A DNA stretch of 64,000 nt from a virus (IMGVR_UViG_3300032225_001322:64001-128000), one strand, 5' to 3'. Shown: positions 23,623 to 44,942, numbered from the stretch's first letter. Notes: generated by a model from the sequence alone, not told the origin. Numbers and translations: made by a program.

Positions 23623-23644
23623 AAAAAAGCACCCTAGAGTGCTT
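23623..23644 (-). terminator. Rho-independent terminator closing the RCC1/modification operon
   Basis: Minus strand AAGCACT-CTAG-GGTGCTT followed by TTTT. Confidence 0.7.
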
Positions 23645-23740
23645 GATTGTTTTTATTATACCGAGTTTACCGACCCACCAGCTAGATTTTTGACTCCACC
23701 TAGTCAGGAGTAACGTTTACTTAGTTAATTATATACCCAG

Positions 23741-23946
23741 TTAATTGTTTTTGCCCCAACTTACCCTGGACCATACTCGCTCATGCGACCAATATATAAA
23801 AGGCTTAACAATCATTTCTGTAGCGCCTATGCCTAGACTAAGAATAAATTCGCCAGTGATTATATAAGAAATTACTATTGTCGTTAGTGTACCACAACAA
23901 CGATAGCTGTAGGCTTTAACAAGACTGCGCCAGGCAGTCTCGCTAT
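23741..23946 (-). CDS. DUF2061-like small membrane protein (start codon unclear)
   Basis: ETAWRSLVKAYSYR...ISYIITG...IYWSHERVW matches the DUF2061 pattern; no in-frame start at the expected position. Confidence 0.65.
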
Positions 23947-24785
23947 TATTTAAGGCCCAGCTCTTTACGAATCTTTGTAGCACTGATGTCTGTAATGCTT
24001 TCATCAAATGTTTCTTCTCCGCTAGTATAACCCACGCCACGACCCCATCCAATGTGTACAATATTAGGCACTACTTGTATTTCATATTGCCCTTGATATA
24101 CAGGATCTAAATCACGCCGAATAAATGCTTTAACTTTTTCTACTTCAAATGGATTACTACCTTGCCATCCTTGCACATCACGAATTTGTATGACCACTTG
24201 ACCAGTACGGGCAATTAACCTTTCAAATAAGGCGCGGTGGCCATCATGCCAAGGTTGCCATCTTCCCATCATCTGCACTGTTTCTTTCTTCCAGTCAAAT
24301 CGAGGACGGCGACGATTGTCAATAATGTGTTGGCCGATAAACTCTGCCCACTTTTCTGCGTTTTGTTCTGTGATTCTAAAATCATATTGTTCAGGTTCAA
24401 CGAATGCCGCATTGGTATCGGCGTACCGACCTTCGCGGATAGTGTCTACCCAAATAGTCCAATCAGCTTTAAAGTTATTACGCATTTCAACTAAAGGAGC
24501 AACAAAGTCACAGATAACATAATCACCACCGGCTTCCATAGAGAACTGGAACATACGGATACTTTGACGAATACGACCATCATTACTGAAGTCCCAGTCA
24601 TTGTATTTTCTGCGAATATCGTCAGCATTAAACCAAGTTACTTGGCAATTAAAATCGCCAATGTGTTCGTTTAACGCACGACCATAACTCATATCACCGT
24701 GTTTTTCTAAGTACGTTTTAAGTTCTCCTGCTAAGGTAGTTTTACCTGAGCCAGGTAAGCCCATGATTAATATACGCTGTGACAT
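23946..24785 (-). CDS. cysC: Adenylylsulfate (APS) kinase fused to an HxGH nucleotidyltransferase domain
   Basis: GLPGSGKTT P-loop, NADDIR, DFS..GR, ICDFVAP and F.EP motifs; C-terminal GRWQPWHDGH, NPF and ISATKIR. Confidence 0.8.
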   Translation of the reverse strand: MSQRILIMGLPGSGKTTLAGELKTYLEKHGDMSYGRALNEHIGDFNCQVTWFNADDIRRKYNDWDFSNDGRIRQSIRMFQFSMEAGGDYVICDFVAPLVEMRNNFKADWTIWVDTIREGRYADTNAAFVEPEQYDFRITEQNAEKWAEFIGQHIIDNRRRPRFDWKKETVQMMGRWQPWHDGHRALFERLIARTGQVVIQIRDVQGWQGSNPFEVEKVKAFIRRDLDPVYQGQYEIQVVPNIVHIGWGRGVGYTSGEETFDESITDISATKIRKELGLK

Positions 24786-24801
24786 TGTTTTCCTTTAAAG
24801 T

Positions 24802-25080
24802 TTAAACTCCAGGTGTAGGAGCTGTTGGATCTGGTGTTCGCTCAACAACTTCATAAGCGGCATACCAATAGCCGTCGCCACCTAATGTAGGAGGAAGATC
24901 AGATAATCCGTGTGTTGCTGGATCATATGCTGGTAATGTAGGTGGATCAAAAACGATCACTACATTGTAAGGTGCTAACTGCTCAGGAGTAGGTTCTGAG
25001 GCAAAATGTACACCAGGTGTTTCATCAGCTACATTTACTCTACCTAAAAATTGTCCTTCGACTACTTTTGCATAATACAT
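24802..25080 (-). CDS. Small hypothetical protein (possible fibre-assembly type)
   Basis: 92 aa, AAGGA Shine-Dalgarno, PAYDPATH motif typical of fibre-adjacent small proteins. Confidence 0.55.
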   Translation of the reverse strand: MYYAKVVEGQFLGRVNVADETPGVHFASEPTPEQLAPYNVVIVFDPPTLPAYDPATHGLSDLPPTLGGDGYWYAAYEVVERTPDPTAPTPGV

Positions 25081-25105
25081 ATTTTATTTCCTTTGTTTTA
25101 TTATA

Positions 25106-27925
25106 CTACGGTCTCTTAAAATTAGCAAGATATTTTAAGAAAAAATCACTTTCCTCTTCAGGATCAACGACAAAGAAATCTATCATTTCGCCGTTTTCTC
25201 CATTCTGGAAAGCAACCTTCTCGGGTAATTTACCCTTGAAGGCAATACCATTTTGGGCACAATAACTATAAAAATGTTGTAATACACCCAACGACAATCT
25301 AATAGTCCAATCATCGCCGCACTTTTTCAAATCATTATGCCAAATATCCATACCCTTTTCTAGCCAAGTCATATCTGGGTTAGGATGCCCTGTAATAAAC
25401 TGACTCCAATAATCTACCATGATATAATGTCTAGCAAATACACGTTTAGGGTACGTTCTTACATTCTTATATATCAAATTAGCGTTTCTTCCTATGGCCT
25501 TACGCTTTAATGTTTCCTGATTTGCCAGTCCGTAGTGTGTTACATAAATGTGATCCTGCCAGAACATTTTGTTACCTAGGAAATGTTCATCATCTCTGCT
25601 GGGATATTCGTGTATGACGCCAGTAAATTGTATGCCAATATTATTTCTAAAGAATCTATCATGCATAACATCAACATTAACGCCATTTTCATGTGCTTTT
25701 TTGCTCATGGCTTGTACTTGGCGTAACAAAACACCATCGTAATAATCACTAATAATATATTTGTTCAAGGCCATGCTGTTTTCAAGCTGTTCGTCAGCAT
25801 CAATCCAAAAGATATAATCTCCGGTGGCAAGGCTAATAGAATAATTTCTTGCTCTAGCAAAGTTACCAAGCCCGTCCTCTTCTTCCCACACTAAATCATA
25901 AACTTTATCTGTGAATTTACGGGCAATATGTTTGGTATCATCGGTTGACCCTGTGTCTACAATTATAATCTCATCAGAGAAATCAGTGACAGTTTTTAAA
26001 CAACGACTAAGATTATCTTCTTCGTTACACACAATCATACAAGTAGATATAGTCTTGTACGGTCTAGTTTTGAGCCATTTGTCTTCGTAGTCAACATAAC
26101 CAAATTCAATGTTGTCATCTTTACTGGCGGTAAACCAGAACATCCAGTTACTGCACATTTCGCCCCTGCGACCCTTGGTGCTATGTGTATTTTTAGCTAT
26201 GGATAAATCAACATTTTTAAAAATAGCGTGTAAATCGTTTAATTCAAAGTGATGTACATGATGTATTTCTAATTTTTTCCGTTTAACCATATGTTCCCAC
26301 GGACCCATGGGTACAGTAAAATAAAACAATGTATTTTTGTTGGCAAGTTTCATCAAGAAATCAAGGAATTGTTGTGTATCTTCGATATGCTCTAGCAATT
26401 CTCCAACAAGTACAATGTCGGGTTGTAAGTCATATGTCAATACATTTCTAACATCGTCGACAATATAGTTTATCTGCGGATACTTCGTTTTATACTGTGA
26501 TTTAACATAGTCTAATACACCTTGTGATGAATCATACATAGTCAGTACTTCAATGTTTTTGGCAAATCTCTTCATCAAAGGTAATGAAAGAATACCATCG
26601 TTACTACCCAAGTCAAGGATTTTTAACTTCTTGTTGGGGAACATCTCAATTTCATTCTGGACAAGCTCAATTAACTTCATACCCCTGCCACTTAGATAAG
26701 CATCTTCATCTTTAGCTACAGGAGTAAAATCAGAAATAGTTAAGTTATCCTTTTCGCCTTGATCCAACATGTCACGATACTTTTGATCGCCAGTTAATTT
26801 CCAAGCGGCAACAATATCAGAATTATAAACTAATTGATCGATGATTTTGTCTTTGTATTTTTCATGTCTTTTGTTAAACATAAAATCAATTTCAGAGTTC
26901 CAAGATTTTGCTACTCTCTCCCAAGCATATGGTAGTATAGCTTTCTTAGCTTTGGTTACTTCGGCTTCGTAAACATCATCTTGATATTTGTCTAAATGTG
27001 CTAAAAACTTTGTTACATAATCTACAGTTCCGTAGTCGTCTGTAACCTTGACTTTAGTATCAGATTTTACAGTTTCTGACATGGCAAATTCATCTGTGGT
27101 AATAACTAAACAACCATTGTATTGTGCTTCGATAGCACTGATACAAGAAATCTCTGGGAAGTTTGTTGGATATACCATGTAGGCACACTTGGATAACAGT
27201 TCATAAAATTCACGCTTGGGCAAGTGACCAATCTGTTTGATATTGCGACTGTATTCTAATAAGTCTTCAACTTCCTTGTGTATCTTTTTAACATCGTCCG
27301 GCAATGTCAATGGATGCTCGTAGGTACAGATGTGTAGTGTCGCATCAGGATTGCGTTCAATAATCTCAGGCCAAATCTTTTCCAGTAATAATTTTAATCC
27401 ACGCTCAGGACGGCTAGCATAGATATAGTTGTTTTTCTTCTGCTCATATGGCACATACTCTGTTACAATCTCTTGGTCATATCCGTTAGAAGTCTTCCAC
27501 ACATAATTTGTTGGGTCAATATCATAGTTCTTAACAAATAAACCCTTGTGGAAGTCACTTAAACAGAATACCCTATCAGTACAACCTATAGCATCTCTAA
27601 AATTGTTAGTGTCAATATCGTGGCACCAGAGAATATTCATCTTACTATCAACCGGTAGTGCCAGGAAATCTGTAAATCTACTTACGATCAATGTATCAAA
27701 TTGTGATTTGTTGTCGTTAGTATATTGATCCACTGTACGATATTCTACACCATCGTACCAACCGGGGGAATCGCATTCGCAATAAACTACCACATCATTG
27801 CCCAGTTTGAACATCTCTCTGGCCATGTAGATTAGTGCCGATTCAGAACCGCCTAGTGCTTTTTCATTAACAGTATGTCCGTTAAATTTAAGTCCTGATG
27901 TTACAAATCCTATAGTTTTTTTCAT
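25106..27925 (-). CDS. Three-domain enzyme: GT4-like glycosyltransferase + class I SAM methyltransferase + GT2 glycosyltransferase
   Basis: LGGSE, ILWCHD, YASRPERGL and FPEISCISAIEAQ (GT-B); ILDLGSNDG and ELLEH (MTase); CMIVCNEE, VDTGSTD, ARN, WIDADE and IHE (GT2). Start revised to 27925 (ATGA overlap). Confidence 0.85.
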   Translation of the reverse strand: MKKTIGFVTSGLKFNGHTVNEKALGGSESALIYMAREMFKLGNDVVVYCECDSPGWYDGVEYRTVDQYTNDNKSQFDTLIVSRFTDFLALPVDSKMNILWCHDIDTNNFRDAIGCTDRVFCLSDFHKGLFVKNYDIDPTNYVWKTSNGYDQEIVTEYVPYEQKKNNYIYASRPERGLKLLLEKIWPEIIERNPDATLHICTYEHPLTLPDDVKKIHKEVEDLLEYSRNIKQIGHLPKREFYELLSKCAYMVYPTNFPEISCISAIEAQYNGCLVITTDEFAMSETVKSDTKVKVTDDYGTVDYVTKFLAHLDKYQDDVYEAEVTKAKKAILPYAWERVAKSWNSEIDFMFNKRHEKYKDKIIDQLVYNSDIVAAWKLTGDQKYRDMLDQGEKDNLTISDFTPVAKDEDAYLSGRGMKLIELVQNEIEMFPNKKLKILDLGSNDGILSLPLMKRFAKNIEVLTMYDSSQGVLDYVKSQYKTKYPQINYIVDDVRNVLTYDLQPDIVLVGELLEHIEDTQQFLDFLMKLANKNTLFYFTVPMGPWEHMVKRKKLEIHHVHHFELNDLHAIFKNVDLSIAKNTHSTKGRRGEMCSNWMFWFTASKDDNIEFGYVDYEDKWLKTRPYKTISTCMIVCNEEDNLSRCLKTVTDFSDEIIIVDTGSTDDTKHIARKFTDKVYDLVWEEEDGLGNFARARNYSISLATGDYIFWIDADEQLENSMALNKYIISDYYDGVLLRQVQAMSKKAHENGVNVDVMHDRFFRNNIGIQFTGVIHEYPSRDDEHFLGNKMFWQDHIYVTHYGLANQETLKRKAIGRNANLIYKNVRTYPKRVFARHYIMVDYWSQFITGHPNPDMTWLEKGMDIWHNDLKKCGDDWTIRLSLGVLQHFYSYCAQNGIAFKGKLPEKVAFQNGENGEMIDFFVVDPEEESDFFLKYLANFKRP

Positions 27926-29295
27926 TTGATGTCCTTGAGTACTTCTTTTAATTCTGTGTATGCTTCTTTCCAAATTTCTGGAGTTACTTGTCTAATCAAT
28001 CTTAAATTGTCACCATACCAACAAGCTGTTGGTTTGCCTTCTGCCCAAGTATAGTATTCCATAATTGGCACTAAAATAATAGTTTTCTTGCCCATGGCAC
28101 AAGCGGCATGTGCTACTGATGTACAACTTGTCACGATTAAGTCTAGATTATACATGATTCCCAACAAGTCGTCAAACGATTTAAGTTCCAAACTGAGGTC
28201 TTTAACTCGCGGGCTTTGTTTTAACTGTTCCATGCCCACATCACGCTGTATAGAGTATAAGGACCACCCATTGTCTTTTGGCATGGCATTAATCATGCTT
28301 TGTAAATTGAGTGTGCGATGTAATTCGTGGTCATATCTAGCGTTGCCTGCCCAGCGTAACCCTACTTTGTAATCGCCGGTTATAGTATTTTTATGTTTTT
28401 CGATATATTCTGGTTTGGCTTCTAAGTAAGGGCCAGTCCATAATTGATCGGCGTCAAGATCCAAAGTCTTTGGCAAATCCATCATAGGAGTCCAATAGTC
28501 ATAATCTCGTTTATTATATTCTTTGGTATTGATCATTTTGGTAAAACCAAGATGGCTATAAACACTGGTAATGCCATGTACTGACATAATAGAACAAGTC
28601 ATACCCATGGCTAATATGTTTTTAACAAATCTAACATTGATAATCTCGTCACCAATGCCGCCTTCTGCTACAAATAATAAATGCTTACCTGGGCGCGGTT
28701 TGCCATCCCATTCTGGCAGTCCATCTGTAACTTTGGAATATGAACCAAATACTTTTAATTTACGACCAATGGAAAGATGTTCCATACCTGCTTTAAAATC
28801 ACCTTGAGCTATATAGTGTACACCCATATTGAACAAGATAGAATCGGCCATGGTACCATCATACTTCCATAGATCTTTTTCTATGTTTTTTAATATTTCA
28901 TAGGATTCATCTTTCCTATTACAAGCAAATAATGCTGCTGAAAGGTCCAACATACCTTCGGCACCCATGTCTACATTGTTAGACATAAACTTAAATGCCG
29001 CCACTGCTTTAGTTGGTTTGTTTGCTGATAGATATACTTTAGCCAAGTTAGCAGATACTGCTAATTTTTCCTCAATAGACTTGGCCTGTTCCAATGCTTG
29101 CTCGCCGTATTCTATAGATTTAAGGAATTTTTTGGCTTTGTTATATCCAAAACAGTATAAATCGTTGCCCAACAAATCGTTTGGTACTACTTTATGTTTT
29201 TCAAAAGTTTCCAATAAAGTAACTATCTCGTCTAATAAATCAACACGGGCGAAGATTTCTATAGTTTGTTTTACAGCATCGTGATCGGTCATCAT
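27922..29295 (-). CDS. TPR-containing GT-B (GT9-like) glycosyltransferase
   Basis: Helical TPR-like N-terminus; WDG, EGGIGDEI..RF, PMMDLP, VGLRWAGN, LDLIVTSCTSVAHAACAMGK, WY..LRLIRQ. Confidence 0.8.
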   Translation of the reverse strand: MMTDHDAVKQTIEIFARVDLLDEIVTLLETFEKHKVVPNDLLGNDLYCFGYNKAKKFLKSIEYGEQALEQAKSIEEKLAVSANLAKVYLSANKPTKAVAAFKFMSNNVDMGAEGMLDLSAALFACNRKDESYEILKNIEKDLWKYDGTMADSILFNMGVHYIAQGDFKAGMEHLSIGRKLKVFGSYSKVTDGLPEWDGKPRPGKHLLFVAEGGIGDEIINVRFVKNILAMGMTCSIMSVHGITSVYSHLGFTKMINTKEYNKRDYDYWTPMMDLPKTLDLDADQLWTGPYLEAKPEYIEKHKNTITGDYKVGLRWAGNARYDHELHRTLNLQSMINAMPKDNGWSLYSIQRDVGMEQLKQSPRVKDLSLELKSFDDLLGIMYNLDLIVTSCTSVAHAACAMGKKTIILVPIMEYYTWAEGKPTACWYGDNLRLIRQVTPEIWKEAYTELKEVLKDIK

Positions 29296-30074
29296 AGTTC
29301 GTTTAATATTTCTTGTATTTTTGAATCAACTCTTTCGTTTGGAATACAAACAAAATCTTGATGCGTAATATATATTGTATAATCCATTGACTCTATAAAT
29401 TCTTTTAAATCATTTCCACCATTTACTTGCTTGGTATATTCTACAAATAAGAAAGGGCGATGCTTGTTAATGGTAGCAACAGCGCCTTTTAACACATGCA
29501 TTTCCATACCTTCAACATCTACTTTGACAAATACAATATTATCTATATTTTTAAAATATTCATCAATAATAATCTGGGGTACTCGATCACCGTTGCCAAA
29601 ATCTAATTCTTGTCCTACATCGCCTTCAAACTCGCCAGTCAATCCAACACTACCAAAACTGGAAGGTTGATAATAATTTAACTTGGGAATTGTAATGGGT
29701 TGAGTTGTATCGCCTACTGCTAGTCGTTCTACCCGAGCATTATCAATATTGTTTAACGCATAGTTGGCGCAATTTAAATAAAAGGTTTGTTCCTGTGGTT
29801 CAAATGCGTAGACAAAACCGCCAAATTGTTCTACATGTTTTGCTGCTTGGATGGCAAACACACCAATATTCGAACCTACATCTATAACAACAGGATTGGC
29901 AATATTAGTAAAATATCTTGATACAATATAAGCAGGAACCATACAGTCGATTCCTTTGTCTAAAATAAATTGCCCCACTCCAAAATTATTTTCTGGATTA
30001 TAATCAAACCTGTTAACCAACATGGTACCGCATTCAGCAGAAACCAGTACATTTCTGCGGGGTTTTCCTATCAT
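29292..30074 (-). CDS. FkbM-family methyltransferase
   Basis: VIDVGSNIG, YAFEPQ, KVDVEGME.VLKGA. Confidence 0.9.
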   Translation of the reverse strand: MIGKPRRNVLVSAECGTMLVNRFDYNPENNFGVGQFILDKGIDCMVPAYIVSRYFTNIANPVVIDVGSNIGVFAIQAAKHVEQFGGFVYAFEPQEQTFYLNCANYALNNIDNARVERLAVGDTTQPITIPKLNYYQPSSFGSVGLTGEFEGDVGQELDFGNGDRVPQIIIDEYFKNIDNIVFVKVDVEGMEMHVLKGAVATINKHRPFLFVEYTKQVNGGNDLKEFIESMDYTIYITHQDFVCIPNERVDSKIQEILNEL

Positions 30075-30643
30075 TTAATGACTTTCCACAAAAATCTTAC
30101 TTCCACTATCATGTTATTTCGTTCGCGAATCATCATTTGAAATTCTTTTTCTTCCGGTGATCCAGGTTTTATTTTTTGAACAATTGGTTGATATGCGGCA
30201 TCAATATTAAACGCATAATCAGTAATTTTAAAATCTACACCATAATAATAACCTAACTGCGAACTATGATCCCCAATAGTATCGCAATGACGATTATATT
30301 CTTTACTAAACAAAGTCATACCATCGATAGTAATCGGTCGCTTATGGGTAGGGTCATTTAAAAATACATCGTGTCTGTGATGCGGGACTAACACTTCAAT
30401 TTCAGTTCCAGATTTGCACACACGATACAATTCTTTCAAGCAATGGAAAAAATCTGGATCTCCTAAATGTTCTAATACATGATGTGCTTTAACTTCAGTG
30501 ACCGAATCATCGGCCCAGGGCCAAACGTCACGACCAATATCTAACACATAGTCTGGACTGAAATTGTCATCATAATCGACATTTAAAAACCCATCAAATT
30601 TAGATGGGCCGCTACCAATGTTTAATTTAATATCCGTTGACAT
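30071..30643 (-). CDS. Class I SAM-dependent methyltransferase-like protein
   Basis: LNIGSG, NVD, HVLEHL, ELYRVCK.G, DPTH. Confidence 0.8.
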   Translation of the reverse strand: MSTDIKLNIGSGPSKFDGFLNVDYDDNFSPDYVLDIGRDVWPWADDSVTEVKAHHVLEHLGDPDFFHCLKELYRVCKSGTEIEVLVPHHRHDVFLNDPTHKRPITIDGMTLFSKEYNRHCDTIGDHSSQLGYYYGVDFKITDYAFNIDAAYQPIVQKIKPGSPEEKEFQMMIRERNNMIVEVRFLWKVIK

Positions 30644-35448: not shown

Positions 35449-38400
35449 TGTATTTCTGCCAAGGTAGTAAAGTTCATAGCATATACTGTCATATACTTAC
35501 TTAGTGTTCCCACTTGTACAGGTGTTGATGTGTTTGTAAAATTACCTTGGCCCAGTTGACCATAACTGTTTGTTCCCCATGTCCATAGTGTGCCATTACT
35601 TTGTAGTGCCGCAGTATGACTATACCCGCAGGCTACACGACTCCAGTTTGTGCCTAGGCCTACTTGTACCAAACTACTTCGATGAGTTAAATCGCCGAGA
35701 CCCAATTGGCCATAGGAATTATTGCCCCAGGCATATAATACTCCTGTGTTTTGTACAGCCATGGCATAATTTAATCCGCAACACACTTGTGACCAATTTG
35801 ATTGTGTGGAGATCTGTAAAGGAGAAACTGTAGCTAGATAACCTAATTGACCAGAGCTGTTTTGTCCCCAGGTAGACCATACACTAGTACTTTGTAATCC
35901 TGATGAAAAGAAATAACCTCCTGCAGATTGAACCCAATTACTAGCAGTACCTACTTGTACCGGACTGGCACTATCACTTGTATTACCTCGACCCAACTGC
36001 CCAGTGTTATTATACCCCATCATATATAGTACGCCATTTTGTATAGCTGAACTGGTATAGACACTGGCAGAAATTGATGTCCATCCAGACAATGCGCCAA
36101 CTTGTACAGGACTAGAACGATTTGTTGTATCACCTAGACCTAATGCTCCAACTGTGTCCTGACCCCATGACCATAATGTGCCATTACTTTGTATTGCCAA
36201 AGCGTAAAAATATCCTCCGTAGACTTGAGTCCAGGTGCTTAATGTACCTACTTGTACTGGACTGCTTCTATTTGTAACATCAGATAGACCTAATGCGCCA
36301 GATTGTCCTGACCCCCAAGCCCATAATGTTCCATTGCTTTGTATAGCATAACTATTAAAAAACCCAGCAGAAATTTTAGCCCAACTAGTTAGTGCCCCAA
36401 TTTGTATTGGACTAGAAACAGAAGTTGTACTGTTATTTCCTAATTGAAATTGACCATTAGACCCCCATGCCCATAGTGTACCGTTGCTTTGTAATGCTAA
36501 CATGTGCCGGGTTCCCACAGATACCCGAGTCCAAATACTCAATGCTCCTATTTGTACAGGACTAGAATATTGTAGTGTATTGTTTTGTGCTAGTTGGCCA
36601 TAAGCATCATCTCCCCAAGCCCATAGTGTACCGGGGCTTTGTATAGCAGCAGCGGTCCGATTTCCGCAAGCGACTTGAGTCCATGTATTTCTTGAACCTA
36701 TCTGATTAGGGCTTGATACCGCTAACAATGATGTTGGATTGTTGCCCAATTGGCCATAACTATTTTCCCCAAAACTCCATATAGTACCATTGCTTTGTAA
36801 ACCAAGACAAAAAGCATAACCACATGCTATCTGTTTCCAAGTATTCATGTATGTGGCACTTGGTACTAACTGATTACCAGTCGAAAGAGAAAAATTAGTA
36901 GTCTGCCCGAAACTATTATTTCCCCAAGACCATAGTGTGCCATTGCTTTGTACATAGACACCAAACTGATCACCCACGCTTGCTGATTTTACGGGTGTGC
37001 TTAGTGTAGGATCCAACGGCACTGGGTTTGCGATAATCGCGCATGAAGCTAGAGTATCTGTGGTATCAAAAATATAATAATTAGAATTTAATATTCTATT
37101 TGAATTGCCACCCCATACATATAAATTGTTATTAGAATTTATTGCCGCACCCCAGAAACTATTCTGCGAACCTGCGGGAAATCCAGTCCATACACCCACG
37201 GTGCCTATTTGTGTAGCTGAACTTCTATATGATGTTGTATTATACCCAAGTTGGCCAAAACTATTCAATCCCCATGTCCACAATGTGCCATTGCTTTGTA
37301 CAGCAAGGGTGTAGTTATATCCGCAAGAAACTCTTGACCAGTTACTGGCTGTGCCTACTTGTACTGGTGATAATACATTTGAGCTTGCTGAATTATTGCC
37401 CAATTGCCCATAACTATTTGTTCCCCAGGCCCATAGTGTGCCAGGTGTTTGTATAGCTGCAGTGTGCGAGTATCCGCAAGCAACTTGAGTCCATAAACTT
37501 AGTGCGCCCACTTGTACTGGCGATGAATAAGATGTGGTGGTAGTATTAAGTCCTAACTGGCCATTGAGATTGAGACCCCAAGTCCATAATGTGCCAGGAC
37601 TTTGTATGCCGGCTGCCTGACCAATTTGCCCCCCAGCTGAAATTTGTGTCCAATAATTTAATGCTCCTACTTGTACTGCGCCTAATACACTAGATAGTGT
37701 TGTGGTGTTTAAACCTAACTGACCAATACTATTATTGCCCCAGGCCCATAGTGTTCCAGGACTTTGAATAGCATAATTGGAATAATAACTTGACGCTATT
37801 TTAGTCGCGGTAACAGTCGGTAATGCGCCGCCAATTTGTAGTGGACTACTTGCGCTCGGCACCGATGTGGAGTTTTGTCCCAGTTGACCAAATAGATTTC
37901 TACCCCAAGCATATAATTGATTGCTAGATGACGCCCATGACCATTGGGTAATATATCCTGTAGTAGGTAACGCCCAATTTCCTAAACTTCCAACTTGTAC
38001 TGGACTTGAAAAATTACTTAATGTTGTAGTATTATTTCCTAATTGACCATAACTATTTGAACCCCAAGTCCATAATGTGCCATTGCTTTGAACAGCTAGA
38101 GCATTATAATATCCGCAAAAAACATTAGTCCATGTACTCAATGTTCCTACTTGTACAGGACTAGAATAACTTGTTGAAGTGTTAAGTCCTAATTGCCCGT
38201 ATCCATCATTACCCCATGCCCACAATGTACCATTGCTTTGTACAGCCATTGAAAATCCGTATAAATTACCTGGCGCCGAGGCGCATGAAATTTGAGTCCA
38301 TACACTCAATGTGCCCACTTGTACTGGACTAGATATTCTAGTTGTACTAGTATTAACACCTAATTGCCCAGTTACATTATAACCACACATCCATAAGGTA

Positions 38401-39515
38401 CCATTGGATTGAATGAAGCCTGAGTGGGCATGCCCTGCCGAAATACGAGTCCAGGTAGTTAATGCGCCCACTTGCACTGGGGTGGAAAAGGTTCCACCAT
38501 TAGTATTAAGTCCTAATTGTCCATTGCCGTTTGTTCCCCAAGACCATAGTGTGCCATCATTTTTTATAGCTAAACTAAAATCATTGCCGCCTGCTACTCG
38601 ATTCCAATTACTCAATGCGCCCACTTGTACTGGGGTGGAAAAGGTTCCGCCCGAGGTATTAAGGCCAAGACTACCACTTGCATTATTGCCCCATGCCCAT
38701 AGTGTGCCTGGTGTTTGTATAGCCAGCACACCTAGTCGAGATCCAGAAACATTAGTCCACAGAGAAGATGAGCCTACTTGTACTAGACTTGATGCATCAG
38801 TTGTACTACCAGTTCCTAATGTACCAAACACTCCCCGACCAATCGCCCATAGTGTGCCATCATTTTTTATAGCATATCCGTTACCTAGACCTACACCAAT
38901 TTGAGTGTACACAGCAAGAGGAGCAGCGACAACTTGAACTGGACTGGAATAGTTAGTAGTATTATTTTGACCTAACTGACCAAACCCATTAGTTCCCCAA
39001 GCATACAGTGAGCCGTTAGATACTATACTTAAACCACTAAAACTTGAAATTAATACCGTTGCCCAATTACTTAACGCACCTACTTGTACTGGACTTGAAT
39101 AATAAGTTGAAGTGTTTAGTCCTAATTGACCAAAAGCATTATTACCCCAGGCCCATAGTGTGCCGTTGCTTTGAATAGCCAAAGTTGAATAATATCCGCT
39201 GCTAATTTGGCTCCATAAACTTAGTGCACCTACTTGTATTGGACTAGAAATATTAGTAGCACTATTATTACCTAACTGGCCATAACTATTGTTACCCCAT
39301 GACCATAATGTACCATTGCTTTGTAAAGCTAGACTAGATTGGCCGCCAGAGCTACCGGCTTGACTGGCAGAAACTGCTACCCATTGGTTATTAGATCCTG
39401 CTGTTTGATTTGGAGCCGAGGTGCTAAATCTATAATTGCGGCCAATCTCATACATAGTGTTACTTGTAATAACATAGTTGGTATTTTGTCTAAAGCCGTA
39501 CGCGAAATCTGCCAT
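35445..39515 (-). CDS. RCC1-repeat beta-propeller protein (about 25-26 repeats)
   Basis: Same repeat; ATGA overlap with the downstream gene. Confidence 0.92.
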   Translation of the reverse strand: MADFAYGFRQNTNYVITSNTMYEIGRNYRFSTSAPNQTAGSNNQWVAVSASQAGSSGGQSSLALQSNGTLWSWGNNSYGQLGNNSATNISSPIQVGALSLWSQISSGYYSTLAIQSNGTLWAWGNNAFGQLGLNTSTYYSSPVQVGALSNWATVLISSFSGLSIVSNGSLYAWGTNGFGQLGQNNTTNYSSPVQVVAAPLAVYTQIGVGLGNGYAIKNDGTLWAIGRGVFGTLGTGSTTDASSLVQVGSSSLWTNVSGSRLGVLAIQTPGTLWAWGNNASGSLGLNTSGGTFSTPVQVGALSNWNRVAGGNDFSLAIKNDGTLWSWGTNGNGQLGLNTNGGTFSTPVQVGALTTWTRISAGHAHSGFIQSNGTLWMCGYNVTGQLGVNTSTTRISSPVQVGTLSVWTQISCASAPGNLYGFSMAVQSNGTLWAWGNDGYGQLGLNTSTSYSSPVQVGTLSTWTNVFCGYYNALAVQSNGTLWTWGSNSYGQLGNNTTTLSNFSSPVQVGSLGNWALPTTGYITQWSWASSSNQLYAWGRNLFGQLGQNSTSVPSASSPLQIGGALPTVTATKIASSYYSNYAIQSPGTLWAWGNNSIGQLGLNTTTLSSVLGAVQVGALNYWTQISAGGQIGQAAGIQSPGTLWTWGLNLNGQLGLNTTTTSYSSPVQVGALSLWTQVACGYSHTAAIQTPGTLWAWGTNSYGQLGNNSASSNVLSPVQVGTASNWSRVSCGYNYTLAVQSNGTLWTWGLNSFGQLGYNTTSYRSSATQIGTVGVWTGFPAGSQNSFWGAAINSNNNLYVWGGNSNRILNSNYYIFDTTDTLASCAIIANPVPLDPTLSTPVKSASVGDQFGVYVQSNGTLWSWGNNSFGQTTNFSLSTGNQLVPSATYMNTWKQIACGYAFCLGLQSNGTIWSFGENSYGQLGNNPTSLLAVSSPNQIGSRNTWTQVACGNRTAAAIQSPGTLWAWGDDAYGQLAQNNTLQYSSPVQIGALSIWTRVSVGTRHMLALQSNGTLWAWGSNGQFQLGNNSTTSVSSPIQIGALTSWAKISAGFFNSYAIQSNGTLWAWGSGQSGALGLSDVTNRSSPVQVGTLSTWTQVYGGYFYALAIQSNGTLWSWGQDTVGALGLGDTTNRSSPVQVGALSGWTSISASVYTSSAIQNGVLYMMGYNNTGQLGRGNTSDSASPVQVGTASNWVQSAGGYFFSSGLQSTSVWSTWGQNSSGQLGYLATVSPLQISTQSNWSQVCCGLNYAMAVQNTGVLYAWGNNSYGQLGLGDLTHRSSLVQVGLGTNWSRVACGYSHTAALQSNGTLWTWGTNSYGQLGQGNFTNTSTPVQVGTLSKYMTVYAMNFTTLAEIQ

Positions 39516-39519
39516 TTAA

Positions 39520-40971
39520 TTAAAGTCCGTATGCTTGTTTATTTACGGGAATTCCGCTGGGATTCAATCCTAATTGACCAAAACTATTATTGCCCCACGA
39601 CCATAATGTGCCATTGCTTTGTATGGCTGTTGAATAGAGATTTCCAGCAGAAATTTTAGTCCATGTACTCAATGCACCCACTTGTACTGGACTTGATCTA
39701 TTAGTTGTATCACTTTGGCCTAATTGACCCCATACATTATATCCCCATGACCAAAGTGTGCCTGGAGTTTGTAAAGCAAGTATGCTATATCCACAAGCAA
39801 CTTGAGTCCATGTACTCAACGCACCCACTTGTACTGGACTAGATATTCTAACTATATTAGTATTAACACCTAATTGCCCATTTAGATTATTTCCCCATGT
39901 CCATAATGTTCCGTTACTTTGGATAGCTGCGGTAAAAGTATTTCCTGAAGAAATTCTAGACCACGTGCTTAGTGCTCCAATTTGTGCTGGACTACTTCTA
40001 TCTGTTATATCACCAAGACCCAACTGACTAGCATTGTTTCTACCCCATGCCCACAGGGTACCGTTGGACTGAATAGCCATAGTAAAATTATATCCGCAAG
40101 ATACTTGCGTCCATGTACTTACTGTGCCTGATTGTACTGGATTTGAAATAGCACTGAGTGTCGAAGTATTGATACCTAATTGTCCGTTGCTATTATTTCC
40201 CCACGACCACAACGTACCATCATTTTTTAAAGCAAAAGCAAAATAATTGCCGGCAGATATTCGAGTCCATGTACTCAGTGCGCCTATTTGAACTGGACTT
40301 AGAATATTTGTTCCAATTGAGCCAACACCTAATTGACCATAAGTGTTTCCACCCCATGTCCATAAACTACCATTACTAAGTAAAGCTAATGTTACACCTT
40401 GTCCCACAGTAAGTTGTGACCATCCCCATAATATACCATTAACTTGTACTGGACTTGATCTATTGGTTGTATTGCTTTGACCTAATTGTCCAAGATCATT
40501 AAGGCCCCACATCCATAAATTACTATTAGTGGGATTTTGAATAGCTCCAGTATTATAAGACCCAGTTGATACGGCAGTCCAGTTACTTGATGTTCCTACT
40601 TGTACTGGGCTTGATCTAGCAGTGACACCAACTTGCCAATCTGTAGTCTGTGGATAGTTTTCTGCCAAAAGAAAGTTTGCTCTTATTAAACTTTGAGCAT
40701 TGGCACGACTTTGATAAAATACTGCAGTAGGCCCAACACCAGTGATTGTAGTAGAGTCTTGATCAACTTGTATGCCTGGTAAAGATTGAGCATAGTTAAT
40801 AGCCCCATTTAAATTACCAACAGGATAGGTCTGCGTCAATAACTGTTGACCAAATACCACAGTCTTTCTATTAGTAACAGCCGCTTGGATGCCTTGATAG
40901 TTAGGATCATTACCTGGTATATATGTGCTGTCTAGATCAACGGCATTGGTTTGATAATTACTAGAGGTCAT
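39520..40971 (-). CDS. RCC1-repeat protein (7 canonical repeats plus divergent N-terminus)
   Basis: Seven LW(M/T/S/A)WG repeats. Confidence 0.9.
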   Translation of the reverse strand: MTSSNYQTNAVDLDSTYIPGNDPNYQGIQAAVTNRKTVVFGQQLLTQTYPVGNLNGAINYAQSLPGIQVDQDSTTITGVGPTAVFYQSRANAQSLIRANFLLAENYPQTTDWQVGVTARSSPVQVGTSSNWTAVSTGSYNTGAIQNPTNSNLWMWGLNDLGQLGQSNTTNRSSPVQVNGILWGWSQLTVGQGVTLALLSNGSLWTWGGNTYGQLGVGSIGTNILSPVQIGALSTWTRISAGNYFAFALKNDGTLWSWGNNSNGQLGINTSTLSAISNPVQSGTVSTWTQVSCGYNFTMAIQSNGTLWAWGRNNASQLGLGDITDRSSPAQIGALSTWSRISSGNTFTAAIQSNGTLWTWGNNLNGQLGVNTNIVRISSPVQVGALSTWTQVACGYSILALQTPGTLWSWGYNVWGQLGQSDTTNRSSPVQVGALSTWTKISAGNLYSTAIQSNGTLWSWGNNSFGQLGLNPSGIPVNKQAYGL

Positions 40972-43142
40972 TTAAATAATATTATAGAAGAGCCAGCTTT
41001 GGTTTCTACCTTTGTTGTAGTATTTATTGACCCAATCTGTACTGGGCTGTATTGATATGTGTTGGTATTGGCACTGATACCCAACTGACCATAGGTGTTG
41101 TTACCAAATCCATATACTGTGCTGTTCACGCTGACTAATAATGTGGTGTCTTGATTGGTAGCCACATTGTTCCAAAAATTACTGACAAATTTCTGTGTTG
41201 GGTATGTAAAGTTTGTGGTAGTGTTGGCACTGACTTTATTACCGACTCCGCCGCCCCACAAATTATTACTTCCGTCAACTAACCAAATGTCATAGTCGTC
41301 CATGGCGGCATTTTGAATACCAGTGGCATAGGTTATCTGTACTGGGCTTGATCTATTTGTCGTATCACTTAACCCTAGTTGGTATTGATTGTTTTTACCA
41401 AATACCCAAGCATTGTTGCTGTTGTCAATTAACATACTTCCGTAGTCAGCGGCCACAGCTCTTGACCAATTAGTGCCTGAACCAATTTGTGTTAATGATG
41501 AGTACGAACTAGTTGTAGTATTAAGTCCCAACTGCCCATAGCTATTATTGCCTATACTCCAAGCAGTACCGTTGGTCTGTACTCCAACGAAATGATATTG
41601 GCCAGTGTCATAACTTGTCCAAGCAATACTATTAGTTGTGTCTATAGTGGGAATATCTACAGTACTAGTCTGTACTAGAGTGTTATCCGCTGTTCGTCTA
41701 AAATAACTTTGACTGTTACTGGCCGCGACTTTATTATAGTTTGCTGTGTTAAACTGACTGGGATAATTGGTAAGTGAATATGCCGCTGGGTTATATTGTC
41801 CCAATTGGCCAAAACTATTTGATCCCCAGGCCCATAATGTGCCATTGTTTTGTATAGCCGAAACAAAATTCACGACTCCTGATATTTGAGTCCATGCGCT
41901 CAATGTGCCAACTTGAACCGGACTTGATATGATAAAAGTAGAAGTGTTAATACCTACTTGTCCGACATTGTTTAAACCCCAAGCCCATAGTGTGCCAGGG
42001 CTTTGTATAGCAAAAGCACCTTCGTATGAAGAAGTTACTTGGCTCCATGAGCTTAACGAACCTACTTGCGTAAGACTTGATCTATCTGTTAGATCACCAA
42101 GCCCTAGCTGTCCGCCTGCGTTACGACCGCATGACCATAGTGTGCCATTGCTTTGTAGGGCAAAAGTAGCATGAACACCAGCAGAAATTTTAGTCCAAGT
42201 AGTTAAAGCGCCTACTTGTACTGGACTAGAATAATTTGTTTGATTATTTTGTCCCAGTTGACCAAAACTGTTTAACCCCCAGGTCCATAGTGTGCCATTA
42301 CTTTGTAATGCCACTGAATGACCAAATCCAGGAAAAACTTGACTCCATGAACTAAGAGCGCCTACTTGTACAGGACTAGAATAATTAGTGCTAGTATTAA
42401 GGCCTAGTTGACCATAACTGTTACTGCCCCAAGACCATAGTGTGCCATTGCTTAGAATAGCTAGAGAGAAATAAGCGCCACCTGAAATAGTCACCCATGT
42501 ACTTAAAGCACCTATTTGTACTGGGCTTATGACATTACTTAATGTTGAAGTGTTTGTGCCAAGCTGACCAAAACTATTGTTGCCCCAAGCCCATAGTGTG
42601 CCTGGGCTTTGTAATGCCAACGTGTACTCGTAGCCCCCAGAAACACTAGTCCATGCGCTCAATGTGCCGACTTGAATTGGGCTAGAACGATTTACTATAT
42701 CACCGAGACCTAATTGACCAAATGAATTTAATCCCCAAGTCCACAATGTGTTATTATTTTTTATGGCCGCCATCCAACTATTACTGCTACTATCATTACT
42801 GAGTAGGCTAGTCCAAATACTCAGCCCACCTACTTGTACAGGACTGCTTCTACCGGTTGTGTCCGCTACCGCTTGACCAGCAAAAAATGGTTGATTATTC
42901 TGATTGACAAAAGCTAGCCCAAGGCCATTTCTAAGATATGCCGCATCAATCCAAGCAGGATAGGCTAATTGATTAGTTAATGCTACTGGACTAGAATATC
43001 CAGCGTTAAGAGTGTTAACGCCTAACTGGCCGTAGCTGTTGTTGCCAAATGCTTGGGCACTAGGAAAATTGGCCCAGCCGCTATAATTACTTATTTTAGC
43101 AAAGTTTGCGGTAGCATCTTGACTATCCTGGATAAACGGCAT
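40968..43142 (-). CDS. RCC1-repeat protein (7 canonical plus about 7 divergent repeats)
   Basis: Canonical repeats flanked by degenerate AQAFG/PFFAG and AWSIG/AWVFG/LWGGG/VYGFG blades. Confidence 0.9.
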   Translation of the reverse strand: MPFIQDSQDATANFAKISNYSGWANFPSAQAFGNNSYGQLGVNTLNAGYSSPVALTNQLAYPAWIDAAYLRNGLGLAFVNQNNQPFFAGQAVADTTGRSSPVQVGGLSIWTSLLSNDSSSNSWMAAIKNNNTLWTWGLNSFGQLGLGDIVNRSSPIQVGTLSAWTSVSGGYEYTLALQSPGTLWAWGNNSFGQLGTNTSTLSNVISPVQIGALSTWVTISGGAYFSLAILSNGTLWSWGSNSYGQLGLNTSTNYSSPVQVGALSSWSQVFPGFGHSVALQSNGTLWTWGLNSFGQLGQNNQTNYSSPVQVGALTTWTKISAGVHATFALQSNGTLWSCGRNAGGQLGLGDLTDRSSLTQVGSLSSWSQVTSSYEGAFAIQSPGTLWAWGLNNVGQVGINTSTFIISSPVQVGTLSAWTQISGVVNFVSAIQNNGTLWAWGSNSFGQLGQYNPAAYSLTNYPSQFNTANYNKVAASNSQSYFRRTADNTLVQTSTVDIPTIDTTNSIAWTSYDTGQYHFVGVQTNGTAWSIGNNSYGQLGLNTTTSSYSSLTQIGSGTNWSRAVAADYGSMLIDNSNNAWVFGKNNQYQLGLSDTTNRSSPVQITYATGIQNAAMDDYDIWLVDGSNNLWGGGVGNKVSANTTTNFTYPTQKFVSNFWNNVATNQDTTLLVSVNSTVYGFGNNTYGQLGISANTNTYQYSPVQIGSINTTTKVETKAGSSIILFK

Positions 43143-44929
43143 TACTTGTTCTCCAGTTTTTTAACTTGTTCAGACAGCGTTTTTACTGCCTCAACTAGTA
43201 TGCCAATCACTCCATTGTAGTTTAATGCCTTGCCGTTGTCTGAGTCTGTTACCAGTTGGGGCAAATATCGTTCGACATCCTGTGCTATGAGACCAGCCGA
43301 TTGTGCTCCGGTGTCGGTGAATTCAAATGTTACACCGCGTAGGTTTTCGATGATAGCCAATGCGTTGGCTATAATTTCAATATTTGATTTCTTTTCAGCA
43401 TCGGATGTAGTATTAAATACTGTAGAGCTTAGTGTACCGGTGCTGGGCACATAGTTTAATTTGGTACTACTAGTATTCACATTGGCAAATGACCCAGATG
43501 TTGTATTACCTAGTAATGGATAAAATGTATTAGCAGATGATAGTTGGTCCACAATAGTAATAGTGGGCGGTAAACCAGATAACTGACTACCATTACCAAA
43601 ATAATAACTAGCTGTGATGTTGCCATTAGCACTAAAAATATTGGCAAATATTACATTGGCGCCAGTAATATTACCGCCAGTACCTGTGCCTGTTATAAAA
43701 TTAACACCAGTAATATTACCAGTAGAACTTATGTTACCAGCATAGACATTACCTGTGCCAGAAAATATGCCGCCAGCGCCAATAGTTATTAACGCACCAG
43801 CGATAATATTGCCAGAACCAGAAATATTACCACCAGTACCCGAAGTGAATACATTGGCGCCTGTTACATTACCAGTGGTACTAAAACTCGATGTAGCAGA
43901 AAAATTACCTGTACTAATGTTGGCGCTGAATATATTACCGCTAGTGCTGAAGAGGTTAGCAGCAAGAAAAGTATTAGCCGAGATAACATTGGCACCAGTA
44001 ATATTACCGCCAGTTATTCCCACCGTAGTAAAATTATTACCTGTAATATTACCGCTGGCACTTAGATTGCCAGCAAAGATATTACCAGTGCCAGATAGTA
44101 TGCCGCCAGTACCTGTAGTAATTAATGCCCCAGCAATGATGTTACCGGTACCAGAAATATTGCCACCAGAACCTGTAGTTGATATTGAGTTACCAGCATA
44201 GATATTACCAGTGGCACTGATAACGCCAGTACCGCCTGTACTTATAAGTCCTATACCTGTTACATTACCAGCAACACTAATATTACCGGTCGATAAAAAA
44301 TTGCCAGCATAGATATTACCAGTTCCAGAAATTACTCCAGTACCACCTGTACTTGCGAATCCTAAACCTGTTACATTACCGCTGGCACTTATAGCACCAG
44401 TGACATTTAATCCTGTGGGAGTGAATACTGCTACATTACCTGTGCCGCTTACACCAACTGTTACATTGGCATTGGCTGTAGCTATGACTATGTTGCTTTG
44501 CCCATTGGCGATAGTAGTGGGCGTAGTGCTTAACCCAGTAAGTAATGCTCCGTTACCAATAAAATAATTACTGGTTGTGATATTGCCAGATACACTAAAA
44601 GTGCCAGTTGTCGCAATATTGCCAGCAGTGATAGTCCCGGTTACTGATTCATTACCGCTAATAATACTATTGTTACTATAGATATTACCGCTAGTAGATA
44701 TATTTCCACTAGTTAAAATATTACCGCTAACATTGCCGCCAATTATATTAGGAGCATAGATATTGCCTGCGGAAGAAATGTAACTAGTAGCAGTAATATA
44801 TCCATTGGCTGTAATATTAGCAAATGGTAATATTACTCTAGACCAAGCATTGCTAGCACTGGCATACTGATAAGTTATACCATTTATTGTAGTTTGTTGG
44901 CCGTTTGTTGGTGTGCTAGGGAATGACAT
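43142..44929 (-). CDS. Tail fibre with C-terminal intramolecular chaperone (Peptidase S74-like)
   Basis: TSDAEKKSNI...LRGVTF...GLIAQDVE..LPQLV...LNYNG.IGILVEAVK; GNI/GNV shaft repeats; MSFPSTPTNGQ N-terminal anchor-type motif. Confidence 0.88.
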   Translation of the reverse strand: MSFPSTPTNGQQTTINGITYQYASASNAWSRVILPFANITANGYITATSYISSAGNIYAPNIIGGNVSGNILTSGNISTSGNIYSNNSIISGNESVTGTITAGNIATTGTFSVSGNITTSNYFIGNGALLTGLSTTPTTIANGQSNIVIATANANVTVGVSGTGNVAVFTPTGLNVTGAISASGNVTGLGFASTGGTGVISGTGNIYAGNFLSTGNISVAGNVTGIGLISTGGTGVISATGNIYAGNSISTTGSGGNISGTGNIIAGALITTGTGGILSGTGNIFAGNLSASGNITGNNFTTVGITGGNITGANVISANTFLAANLFSTSGNIFSANISTGNFSATSSFSTTGNVTGANVFTSGTGGNISGSGNIIAGALITIGAGGIFSGTGNVYAGNISSTGNITGVNFITGTGTGGNITGANVIFANIFSANGNITASYYFGNGSQLSGLPPTITIVDQLSSANTFYPLLGNTTSGSFANVNTSSTKLNYVPSTGTLSSTVFNTTSDAEKKSNIEIIANALAIIENLRGVTFEFTDTGAQSAGLIAQDVERYLPQLVTDSDNGKALNYNGVIGILVEAVKTLSEQVKKLENK

Positions 44930-44935
44930 AATATA

Positions 44936-44942
44936 TATTTAT
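44936..44942 (-). promoter_or_regulatory. Late-promoter-like ATAAATA heading the fibre/RCC1/modification operon
   Basis: TATTTAT on plus strand, 6 nt upstream of the ATG at 44929. Confidence 0.6.

Follow-up and report, generated by a model that had tools for sequence, protein, structure and literature searches.

Why does a virus pack a sulfotransferase, methyltransferases and glycosyltransferases into one block with a tail fibre and four RCC1 propeller proteins, and on what would these enzymes act? The block in question lies at positions 23,623 to 44,942 of the 64,000-nucleotide stretch IMGVR_UViG_3300032225_001322:64001-128000 (hereafter, the window), which is bases 64001-128000 of a 151,910-base IMG/VR virus contig. 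A sequence-only reading of this stretch had seen in the block a self-contained pathway, transcribed as one late 21-kb unit, that builds a methylated and sulfated glycan on virion surface proteins. We put a probability of roughly 0.6 on a related reading, in which the block is a copy of a mobile fibre-region module whose soluble enzymes would modify the RCC1 proteins in the host cytoplasm, before or during assembly. The evidence for such a module is genomic throughout, and comparative genomics gives good support to treating the enzymes and the RCC1 and fibre proteins as one functional unit.

The set that recurs comprises an RCC1 protein, a glycosyltransferase (GT) that joins tetratricopeptide repeats (TPR) to a catalytic half of the GT9 type, a sulfotransferase and a small methyltransferase. 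It was found in >500 matched stretches of uncultured viral contigs, 80 of which were examined, and in two cultured cyanophages; the examined modules always lie in the host-recognition region. To count its parts independently, we scanned with the GT family alone and grouped the 80 examined loci into 43 clusters at <90% identity (the GT9-anchored loci). RCC1 genes occur in 37 of the 43. The counts for the other parts are 32 (sulfotransferase), 29 (small methyltransferase), 21 (S74-type fibre) and 16 (APS-kinase-like gene; APS, adenosine 5'-phosphosulfate), and no locus has a glycine-rich protein gene. The 37 include one locus whose RCC1 gene is visible only with TAG read-through (a recoded phage); of the six RCC1-less loci, four are truncated by a contig end or extend <1.7 kb upstream. 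Of 36 loci, 35 have their nearest RCC1 gene at a distance of no more than 3 kb; in 34 it shares the strand of the GT gene and in 32 it precedes it, usually as the immediately upstream gene. Since the terminases of the carrier contigs are only 24-60% identical to that of the window, the module crosses deep phage lineages. The expectation of the sequence-only reading that RCC1 clusters and the enzyme set would co-occur in related phages is thus strongly borne out, and in many lineages.

A second set of loci was anchored on the APS-kinase-like gene. Among the 52 such loci that extend 8 kb or more upstream, 8 carry RCC1, GT9 and sulfotransferase genes together, 43 carry none of them and 1 carries a sulfotransferase only (Fisher p 1e-9, for loci that are not phylogenetically independent). 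Compared with the window, the sulfotransferase and GT of those 8 loci are 25-30% identical, versus 76-78% for the kinase. At the level of genomes, RCC1 is present in 5 of 5 cassette-bearing relatives (G006-G010), and both RCC1 and sulfotransferase are absent from five large relatives that have the kinase gene and no cassette (G001-G005), two of them estimated to be 98-100% complete. A scan with the window sulfotransferase as a single protein returned 14 loci, as it reaches close relatives only; profiles found many further divergent ones. One carrier, the 276-kb contig G010 with terminal repeats (locus L173), has six in-frame TAG codons in its terminase match and five in its RCC1 match and appears to use TAG in a recoded way.

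The deposited phages tell a similar story. In S-SRM01, a T4-like cyanophage of the Kyanoviridae, genes follow that of the long-tail-fibre distal subunit in the order RCC1, DUF4376 protein, RCC1, TPR protein, 2-oxoglutarate oxygenase, four unknowns, RCC1, sulfotransferase, unknown, GT2-methyltransferase, unknown and nucleotide-sugar epimerase; the S-SRM01 paper does not mention the module genes. BUCT-ZZ01 has a minimal module, in which a tail fibre and a small protein are followed by RCC1 and a single 571-residue GT9-domain protein, and the unannotated single-cell virus AG-345-E08 has three module matches within ~7 kb of each other. Relatives of the GT on contigs of Bdellovibrio, Saccharibacteria and other metagenome-assembled genomes also adjoin RCC1; we did not count these as independent cellular evidence, as several look viral and one (L210) carries the phage kinase fusion.

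Within the window, the 14 tightly packed minus-strand genes occur in the order that had been described, with open reading frames from 23741 to 44929, and their family assignments hold in Pfam, NCBIfam, PHROG and language-model features. The features are as follows.

44936-44942, minus strand: ATAAATA, a late-promoter-like motif, 7 nucleotides before the ATG of the S74 fibre gene
43142-44929, minus strand: tail-fibre protein, 595 residues, with a C-terminal S74 intramolecular chaperone (Pfam Peptidase_S74, 4e-12)
40968-43142, minus strand: RCC1 propeller protein a, 724 residues (Pfam RCC1 1e-87, WD40_RLD 7e-99)
39520-40971, minus strand: RCC1 propeller protein b, 483 residues (Pfam RCC1 1e-73)
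35445-39515, minus strand: RCC1 protein c, 1356 residues (Pfam RCC1 2e-196, 23 repeat matches)
32125-35448, minus strand: RCC1 protein d, 1107 residues (Pfam RCC1 6e-200, 19 repeat matches)
31458-32108, minus strand: DUF6445-like protein, 216 residues (language-model features, viral DUF6445 clusters, 0.96)
31462-31490, minus strand: sigma-70-like promoter TTGACA-17-TACAAT before the sulfotransferase gene, 11 of 12 consensus positions
30650-31429, minus strand: sulfotransferase of the type that uses PAPS (3'-phosphoadenosine 5'-phosphosulfate), 259 residues (Pfam Sulfotransfer_3 6e-16, Sulfotransfer_1 5e-11)
30071-30643, minus strand: small class I S-adenosylmethionine (SAM) methyltransferase, 190 residues (weak Methyltransf_11 match, 7e-4)
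29292-30074, minus strand: FkbM-family methyltransferase, 260 residues (TIGR01444 8e-25, Pfam Methyltransf_21 6e-18)
27922-29295, minus strand: TPR plus GT9-fold (GT-B) glycosyltransferase, 457 residues (Pfam TPR; C-terminal half by predicted fold)
25106-27973, minus strand: GT4 plus SAM methyltransferase plus GT2 triple-domain enzyme, 955 residues from a TTG start (Pfam domains)
25100-25128, minus strand: sigma-70-like promoter TTGCTA-17-TATAAT before the 92-residue gene
24802-25080, minus strand: 92-residue protein without a family match, 54-77% identical in related cassettes
23946-24785, minus strand: fusion of an APS-kinase-like domain and an NMNAT-like HxGH nucleotidyltransferase (Pfam APS_kinase, 28.9 bits)
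23741-24061 (domain 23741-23923), minus strand: DUF2061 small hydrophobic protein (Pfam 3e-16)
23627-23644, minus strand: intrinsic terminator, a hairpin followed by a T-run, read from the sequence

Neighbouring genes overlap by 1-4 nucleotides or are separated by 4-28, with two exceptions: overlaps of 52 nucleotides at the triple-domain gene and 116 at DUF2061, both of which result from far-upstream TTG starts (for the triple-domain enzyme, a later ATG is also possible). The S74 fibre protein falls into the PHROG families for tail fibre and long-tail-fibre distal subunit. The DUF6445-like protein has no Pfam or NCBIfam match, and its profile is matched in 13 of the 43 GT9-anchored loci; for the 92-residue protein there is only a weak feature lead, to tail-fibre assembly proteins (0.86).

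Are the RCC1 proteins virion parts? The evidence is indirect and comes from their tail-fibre setting, from PHROG and from one proteomic study. RCC1 genes sit in tail-fibre modules in the window, S-SRM01, BUCT-ZZ01, Clostridioides phage LIBA2945, Brevibacillus phage Jenst and Bacillus phage SP-15; the LIBA2945 order (fibre, RCC1, small protein, fibre, glycine-rich protein) is close to that of the window minus the enzymes. PHROG "tail protein" families include RCC1 stretches, and protein d itself matches one of them (phrog_20500, 1e-13). In the jumbo coliphage phAPEC6, six "DNA condensation protein" products were detected in virions by mass spectrometry (PMC7247149), a label that appears to be the authors' name for RCC1-like proteins. 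A further indirect sign is that the RCC1 proteins of a divergent locus (L092) carry TIG and He_PIG immunoglobulin-like domains. As for architecture, the repeat counts of proteins c and d are consistent with several propellers each, and protein b has ~120 N-terminal residues that are not RCC1.

Matches to the RCC1 protein are rare in deposited phages, at only 24 of 50,697 records. Protein b finds its best matches, at 42-46% identity, in S-SRM01, BUCT-ZZ01 and AG-345-E08, and these three are precisely the ones in which the GT9 enzyme is encoded as well. A distinct RCC1 subfamily tracks the enzyme, and a conserved feature specific to it is an R-S-S-P-V-Q-V-G segment after GQLG, which we regard as a candidate modification site only. 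We also considered N-glycosylation at N-x-S/T triplets, which occur in the two large RCC1 proteins at about twice the expectation from composition (48 versus 23 and 55 versus 29; z 5.6 for protein c and ~6 for both large proteins against shuffles, a comparison confounded by repeat homology). The excess arises from NGT, NNS and NxS in nearly every RCC1 blade. We did not adopt this idea, because the excess comes from repeated blades and NGT is mostly DGT in the wider RCC1 family that is linked to the enzyme.

The types of the glycosyltransferases bear on the acceptor. The TPR protein matches only TPR in Pfam, its C-terminal half having no Pfam match, including to Glyco_transf_9 (PF01075), and a PDB sequence-profile search with its family returned TPR proteins only; the GT half is visible only by predicted fold. 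An AlphaFold 2 (AF2) model built on 13 relatives (predicted local distance difference test [pLDDT] 82.8) has an N-terminal helical-repeat half and a C-terminal GT-B half. Superposed on GT9 structures, the GT half (residues 187/199-457) gives VIA Z values of 17.4 for 3tov, 16.7 for WaaF (1psw), 16.4 for 2h1f and 16.1 for TibC, with root-mean-square deviations (rmsd) of 2.8-3.2 over 232-243 residues; the next fold class, UDP-GlcNAc 2-epimerases, reaches Z 12 at most. Residues 199-457 are thus predicted to have the GT-B fold of GT9. The top whole-chain Foldseek matches are SPY, OGT and HMW1C (E 6e-7 to 1e-3), and the catalytic half fits GT9 (Z 16-17) better than OGT (Z 9.9, rmsd ~18). Only one cysteine, C391, is invariant in 13 family members. 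The lipopolysaccharide (LPS) heptosyltransferases WaaC and WaaF score like TibC (Z 16-17), so the fold cannot tell a protein from a lipid acceptor.

For the GT2 domain of the triple-domain enzyme, the nearest solved relatives are GmaR (6e-25) and SunS/7msk (1e-11 to 1e-12). It matches the NCBIfam SunS model at 4e-17 with 62 bits versus a cut-off of 350, and is therefore not a SunS-family member. GmaR, the Listeria flagellin O-GlcNAc transferase, and the SunS/ThuS peptide S-glycosyltransferases act on proteins or peptides; the phage GT2 domain, in contrast, shares its chain with a GT4 domain and a methyltransferase. The earlier suggestion that the GT types point to protein acceptors stands: the fold leads to TibC, the sequence to GmaR and SunS, and the architecture to OGT and SPY, all of which act on proteins. 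No cassette enzyme has a transmembrane segment, the sole hydrophobic segment of the block being in DUF2061, and Pfam and NCBIfam scans of the cassette proteins gave no match to flippase, polymerase or priming phosphoglycosyltransferase families. The lack of membrane segments and of a detected lipid-carrier gene fits cytoplasmic action on soluble proteins.

A second, shorter TPR plus GT9 paralog (384-386 residues) is conserved in the clade and occurs in the window's own genome at contig bases 138701-139639 (plus strand), outside the window. In the complete relative G001, it lies at L260:8275-9429 (minus strand), in a portal-protease-capsid block, after the portal and prohead protease genes and back to back with a gp23-like major capsid gene; this copy reaches 21.4 bits against PF01075, versus a cut-off of 22. 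It is a candidate capsid-modifying enzyme and independently places the TPR-GT9 family beside virion genes.

The sulfotransferase is clearly of the PAPS-dependent type (Sulfotransfer_3, 59.8 bits versus a cut-off of 27), and G9, P11, R12 and G14 of its loop GLPRSGS, along with R109 and S117, are invariant in 13 members. The best solved relatives of the family profile are the protein-tyrosine sulfotransferases TPST1/2 (3.5e-10 to 1.5e-9, over positions 5-204 of 259), with polyketide, cytosolic and heparan-sulfate sulfotransferases scoring below them (heparan-sulfate ~0.007). A sulfated glycan, as the sequence-only reading had it, is therefore not supported as stated, and the acceptor may be protein. 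One alternative builds on this ranking: the sulfotransferase would sulfate the RCC1 protein directly, on Tyr or Ser/Thr in the manner of TPST or RaxST, and glycosylation and methylation would be separate, with no sulfated glycan. It is nested within the broad claim that RCC1 is the target, and we consider it unlikely. The fusion of the sulfotransferase to a GT9 domain in at least six lineages, where it replaces the TPR substrate-binding half, fits the docking of both on the same protein. However, fused enzymes often act successively on one growing product, the solved structures of this Pfam family include few carbohydrate sulfotransferases from bacteria, so that the TPST ranking may reflect sampling, and the sole NCBIfam match is to the Nod-factor enzyme NoeE, covering the PAPS loop only.

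The methyltransferase genes vary between cassettes. Relatives of the small enzyme have a clear class I SAM motif, and its gene usually overlaps or abuts the GT9 gene. Among near-identical relatives, the small methyltransferase and FkbM genes come and go, FkbM being missing from some similar cassettes; such varying content fits a surface decoration that diversifies. At L092:4720-10001, a divergent cassette stands beside the same kinase gene and consists of a sulfotransferase-GT9 fusion, GT25, Methyltransf_24, GT2 and a UDP-galactopyranose mutase, the last of which suggests a galactofuranose-containing product.

With RCC1 as the acceptor, the enzymes can be arranged into a pathway whose step order, sugar, sulfate acceptor and timing, like the acceptor itself, we infer. 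The TPR half would select a propeller, and the TPR-GT9 enzyme would attach the first sugar in the mode of FlmG, OGT and TibC. The triple-domain enzyme would then add or extend sugars through its GmaR/SunS-like GT2 domain and its GT4 domain, after which its own methyltransferase, the small SAM methyltransferase and the FkbM enzyme would methylate the product. Lastly, the sulfotransferase would add sulfate from PAPS, which the adjacent APS-kinase-like protein would help to supply. The enzymes would probably be made from their own sigma-70-like promoters together with late read-through from the fibre genes, and so would already be there during synthesis of the late RCC1 proteins.

Several observations weigh against this reading. 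Two GT loci with full flanks, L112 and L131, have no RCC1 gene, and the sulfotransferases of phages S-SKS1 and S-SCSM1 are not adjacent to one. RCC1 proteins c and d begin directly with repeats and have no recognisable virion-attachment domain. The Clostridioides, Brevibacillus and Bacillus phages have RCC1 proteins but no such enzymes; phage RCC1 proteins thus do not need modification in general. Sulfotransferase-free genomes keep the kinase fusion too, so that its role extends beyond this pathway. Finally, genes in a hypervariable fibre island could be linked because they are transferred together, without the product of one acting on that of another.

The last point leads to a second alternative, in which the targets of the enzymes are different virion proteins (S74 fibre, other fibres or capsid), or the RCC1 proteins serve as scaffolds or lectins, and the linkage to RCC1 comes from a shared, exchangeable fibre island. 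S74-type fibres near the module in about half of the loci (21 of 43), the paralog beside the capsid gene, by which the family is not tied to RCC1 alone, and the two RCC1 proteins without an attachment domain are all in keeping with it. We nevertheless judge it quite unlikely: RCC1 is the most constant non-enzyme partner (37 of 43 loci, versus 21 for S74 and 0 for glycine-rich proteins), it is usually immediately upstream, its distinct subfamily tracks the enzyme, and the minimal module of BUCT-ZZ01 is RCC1 with one GT9-bearing gene only.

When would the enzymes be made? The ATAAATA motif at 44936 and the terminator that bound the block are both present, and all long open reading frames from 21147 to the right end of the window are on the minus strand. 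The motif is not the full T4 late octamer TATAAATA, of which the window has 2 exact copies versus ~10 expected from shuffles. The shorter form [ACT]TAAATA has 22 copies on the minus strand of the window, and it lies within 45 nucleotides upstream (10-35 nucleotides before the start) of 10 of the 17 gene starts that follow gaps of at least 20 nucleotides (1770, 7180, 10330, 14039, 16456, 23571, 44929, 52001, 57838 and 62091), including those of the S74 fibre gene, the glycine-rich gene and other structural genes. It is likely, from this distribution, to be a late-promoter element of the window's phage. The sulfotransferase and 92-residue genes have no [ACT]TAAATA and have sigma-70-like -35/-10 pairs instead; the pair before the sulfotransferase gene is kept in five relative loci (L002-L005 and L007) where the surrounding sequence is unalignable. 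Because of these internal promoters, of which the first is conserved, the single 21-kb late transcript proposed earlier is not supported as stated, and the notion of one transcript was an interpretation rather than an observation. Between the fibre/RCC1 unit and the enzyme cassette, there is no terminator-like site above chance. The block is probably, on these sequence signals, a late fibre/RCC1 unit followed by an enzyme cassette with its own promoters, with read-through possible.

A host-directed role is very improbable. In this view, the cassette would serve auxiliary metabolism or host takeover by altering glycans of the host envelope (LPS core, exopolysaccharide or S-layer glycan), perhaps to block superinfection. 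In its favour, GT9 is classically the LPS heptosyltransferase family, PHROGs classes the GT domains as "moron, auxiliary metabolic gene and host takeover", the cassette has a G+C content of 0.36-0.38 versus 0.40-0.45 for its neighbours, and promoters of the sigma-70-like kind point to expression that is not confined to the late class. Against it, the transferases have no membrane segment, no flippase or lipid-carrier gene was detected, and the near-obligate RCC1 linkage in fibre modules across lineages, the TPR fusion and the GmaR/SunS-type GT2 domain would all be left unexplained.

The sulfate supply is the next question. The kinase fusion consists of an APS-kinase-like P-loop domain (residues ~1-155) and an archaeal-NMNAT-like HxGH nucleotidyltransferase (~165-279). 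The first scores 28.9 bits against Pfam APS_kinase (cut-off 21.1), and its top Foldseek matches (~20 of the best-ranked chains) are APS kinases with target template-modelling (TM) scores of 0.6-0.75; its motifs NADDIR, DWDFS..GRIRQ and FVAP align with the Aeropyrum enzyme. The AF2 model is usable for this half only, with pLDDT 26-60 in the nucleotidyltransferase half, which matches archaeal NMNAT models (~4e-5) and MJ0541. The HxGH nucleotidyltransferase superfamily includes ATP sulfurylase; no sulfurylase family match was found in the C-terminal half. The protein thus resembles CysC and bifunctional PAPS synthases (PDB 7yq1, 4bzp, 1x6v, 2gks) in the APS-kinase fold and motifs of its N-terminal domain, and differs from PAPS synthases in a second domain that matches NMNAT rather than ATP sulfurylase and in its pairing or fusion with the membrane-type DUF2061.

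We rejected the idea that the fusion is dedicated to the cassette, since it is a clade-wide gene (73-93% identity) that is conserved without a sulfotransferase or RCC1. It occurs at ≥600 viral loci, most of them without a nearby sulfotransferase or RCC1, including in genomes estimated to be 98-100% complete, and where a genome has no sulfotransferase, the neighbours of the fusion are clamp-loader, radical-SAM, DnaJ and ClpB genes. In a complete 344-kb relative (L023:4236-16313), for instance, it is found in such a clamp-loader/radical-SAM/DnaJ/ClpB-like setting, followed by a GH19-like protein, which is a non-structural context that differs markedly from the one in the window. Kinase-only versions (137-160 residues) adjoin the cassette elsewhere and are the only homologues in three genomes estimated to be 99-100% complete. 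Of the earlier proposal that an APS kinase is the PAPS source, the fold and motifs remain: by sequence, the fusion plausibly supplies PAPS in the window's pathway, although it does not belong to the cassette exclusively. Nor is the pathway self-contained, as had been suggested, because the cassette has no nucleotide-sugar synthesis gene and the kinase fusion is clade-wide. Sugar genes in the modules of relatives are an epimerase or UDP-galactopyranose mutase, and no gene for GmhA (PF13580), which would help to provide ADP-heptose, was detected in the source contig, which is only ~43% complete by CheckV.

DUF2061 is tied to the kinase in several arrangements, including kinase-DUF2061 fusions (P0002 and P0003). 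In the window, its domain starts two codons past the kinase stop, shifted to the +1 frame with respect to that gene and with no nearby start codon. Relatives at L019, L020, L025 and L032 have an ATG, GTG or TTG for DUF2061 that overlaps the kinase stop; this start was apparently lost in the window, L016, L018 and L023. Translation from the far-upstream TTG, reinitiation or a +1 shift at AAA-TAA are all possible.

From these pieces, a wider proposal can be made, which we hold tentatively and regard as rather doubtful: in many aquatic phages, the propeller heads of the fibres would be sulfated, glycosylated and methylated, and the resulting negative, methyl-capped coat would tune adsorption or shield receptor-binding parts; in this clade the sulfate donor would come from an undescribed minimal PAPS synthase made of an APS kinase and an NMNAT-like adenylyltransferase, membrane-tethered by DUF2061.

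To our knowledge, experiments have shown phage-encoded enzymes to modify virion proteins in only a few systems, mycobacteriophages and chloroviruses. In the TibC/Aah systems, the enzyme gene adjoins the gene of a repeat-rich surface protein that the enzyme O-glycosylates in the cytoplasm. The phage enzyme resembles TibC/Aah with TibA/AIDA-I (PDB 4rap, 4rb4) in its GT9-type GT-B fold (for TibC, rmsd 3.0 over 243 residues), whereas TibC has no TPR half and is an iron-containing dodecamer; the phage family has only one invariant cysteine. OGT, SPY and HMW1C (GT41) share the TPR plus GT-B architecture, the phage catalytic half being closer to GT9. A further likeness in layout is FlmG of Caulobacter crescentus, a cytoplasmic flagellin O-glycosyltransferase whose N-terminal half confers substrate choice (PMC7591256). 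FlmG is soluble and cytoplasmic, as is predicted for the phage enzyme, and joins a substrate-binding half at the N-terminus to a GT-B half at the C-terminus; its targets are several paralogous structural proteins, which it modifies prior to their assembly, and it is made ahead of that step. The comparison is one of architecture, solubility and gene linkage: in FlmG, unlike in the phage module, the acceptor is flagellin, the sugar is pseudaminic acid, and neither a sulfotransferase nor a phage is involved.

Two viral systems offer parallels for enzymes that act on the virion. The A064R and A111/114R proteins of chlorovirus PBCV-1 are multidomain GT/GT/methyltransferase enzymes that build capsid glycans (PMC7826918, PMC9614988, PMC5408694). 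Like the enzymes of the phage module, they are virus-encoded, soluble, multidomain GT/methyltransferase chains, and theirs act on a virion structural protein; unlike it, PBCV-1 is a eukaryotic giant virus, and the acceptor is the major capsid protein. Mycobacteriophages encode glycosyltransferases that modify their own virion proteins (Freeman et al. 2023, PMC10527164, as relayed in PMC12582341). Modification there is shown experimentally; the mycobacteriophage system uses different enzyme families and has no sulfotransferase, methyltransferase, APS kinase or propeller proteins. In a full-text literature search, we found no paper on sulfation of a phage particle and none describing an RCC1-GT9-sulfotransferase module.

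If propeller decoration is real, predictions of host range that use only the fibre sequence would overlook a layer of specificity, and phage RCC1 proteins, which are annotated as "chromosome condensation", would gain a concrete role. Glyco-engineering would also gain cytoplasmic protein glycosyltransferases of a new class, together with their matched acceptor. As S-SRM01 and BUCT-ZZ01 are in culture, propeller decoration is directly testable.

The window comes from a giant freshwater phage and, judging by its genes, is a fragment of a jumbo myophage. The latter assignment follows from its large terminase, which is 51% identical to that of Pseudomonas jumbo phage PA5oct, and from its other virion genes, which encode a 1215-residue tail sheath, a tail tube and baseplate-wedge-like and fibre-like proteins. 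Related contigs with terminal repeats measure 344-372 kb, and megablast of the 21-kb block against deposited phages returned no match. The RCC1 genes have a G+C content of 0.43-0.45, and the rest of the window ~0.40. Beyond the terminator, the gene at 21811-23571 encodes a Gly/Pro-rich protein (Pfam Gly_rich_2, 8e-23) and coincides with a local G+C peak of 0.50. In the 372-kb relative G006, the terminase large subunit matches two separate open reading frames ~1.2 kb apart (20998-21738 and 22933-23757), and an intron, an intein or a homing element may interrupt it.

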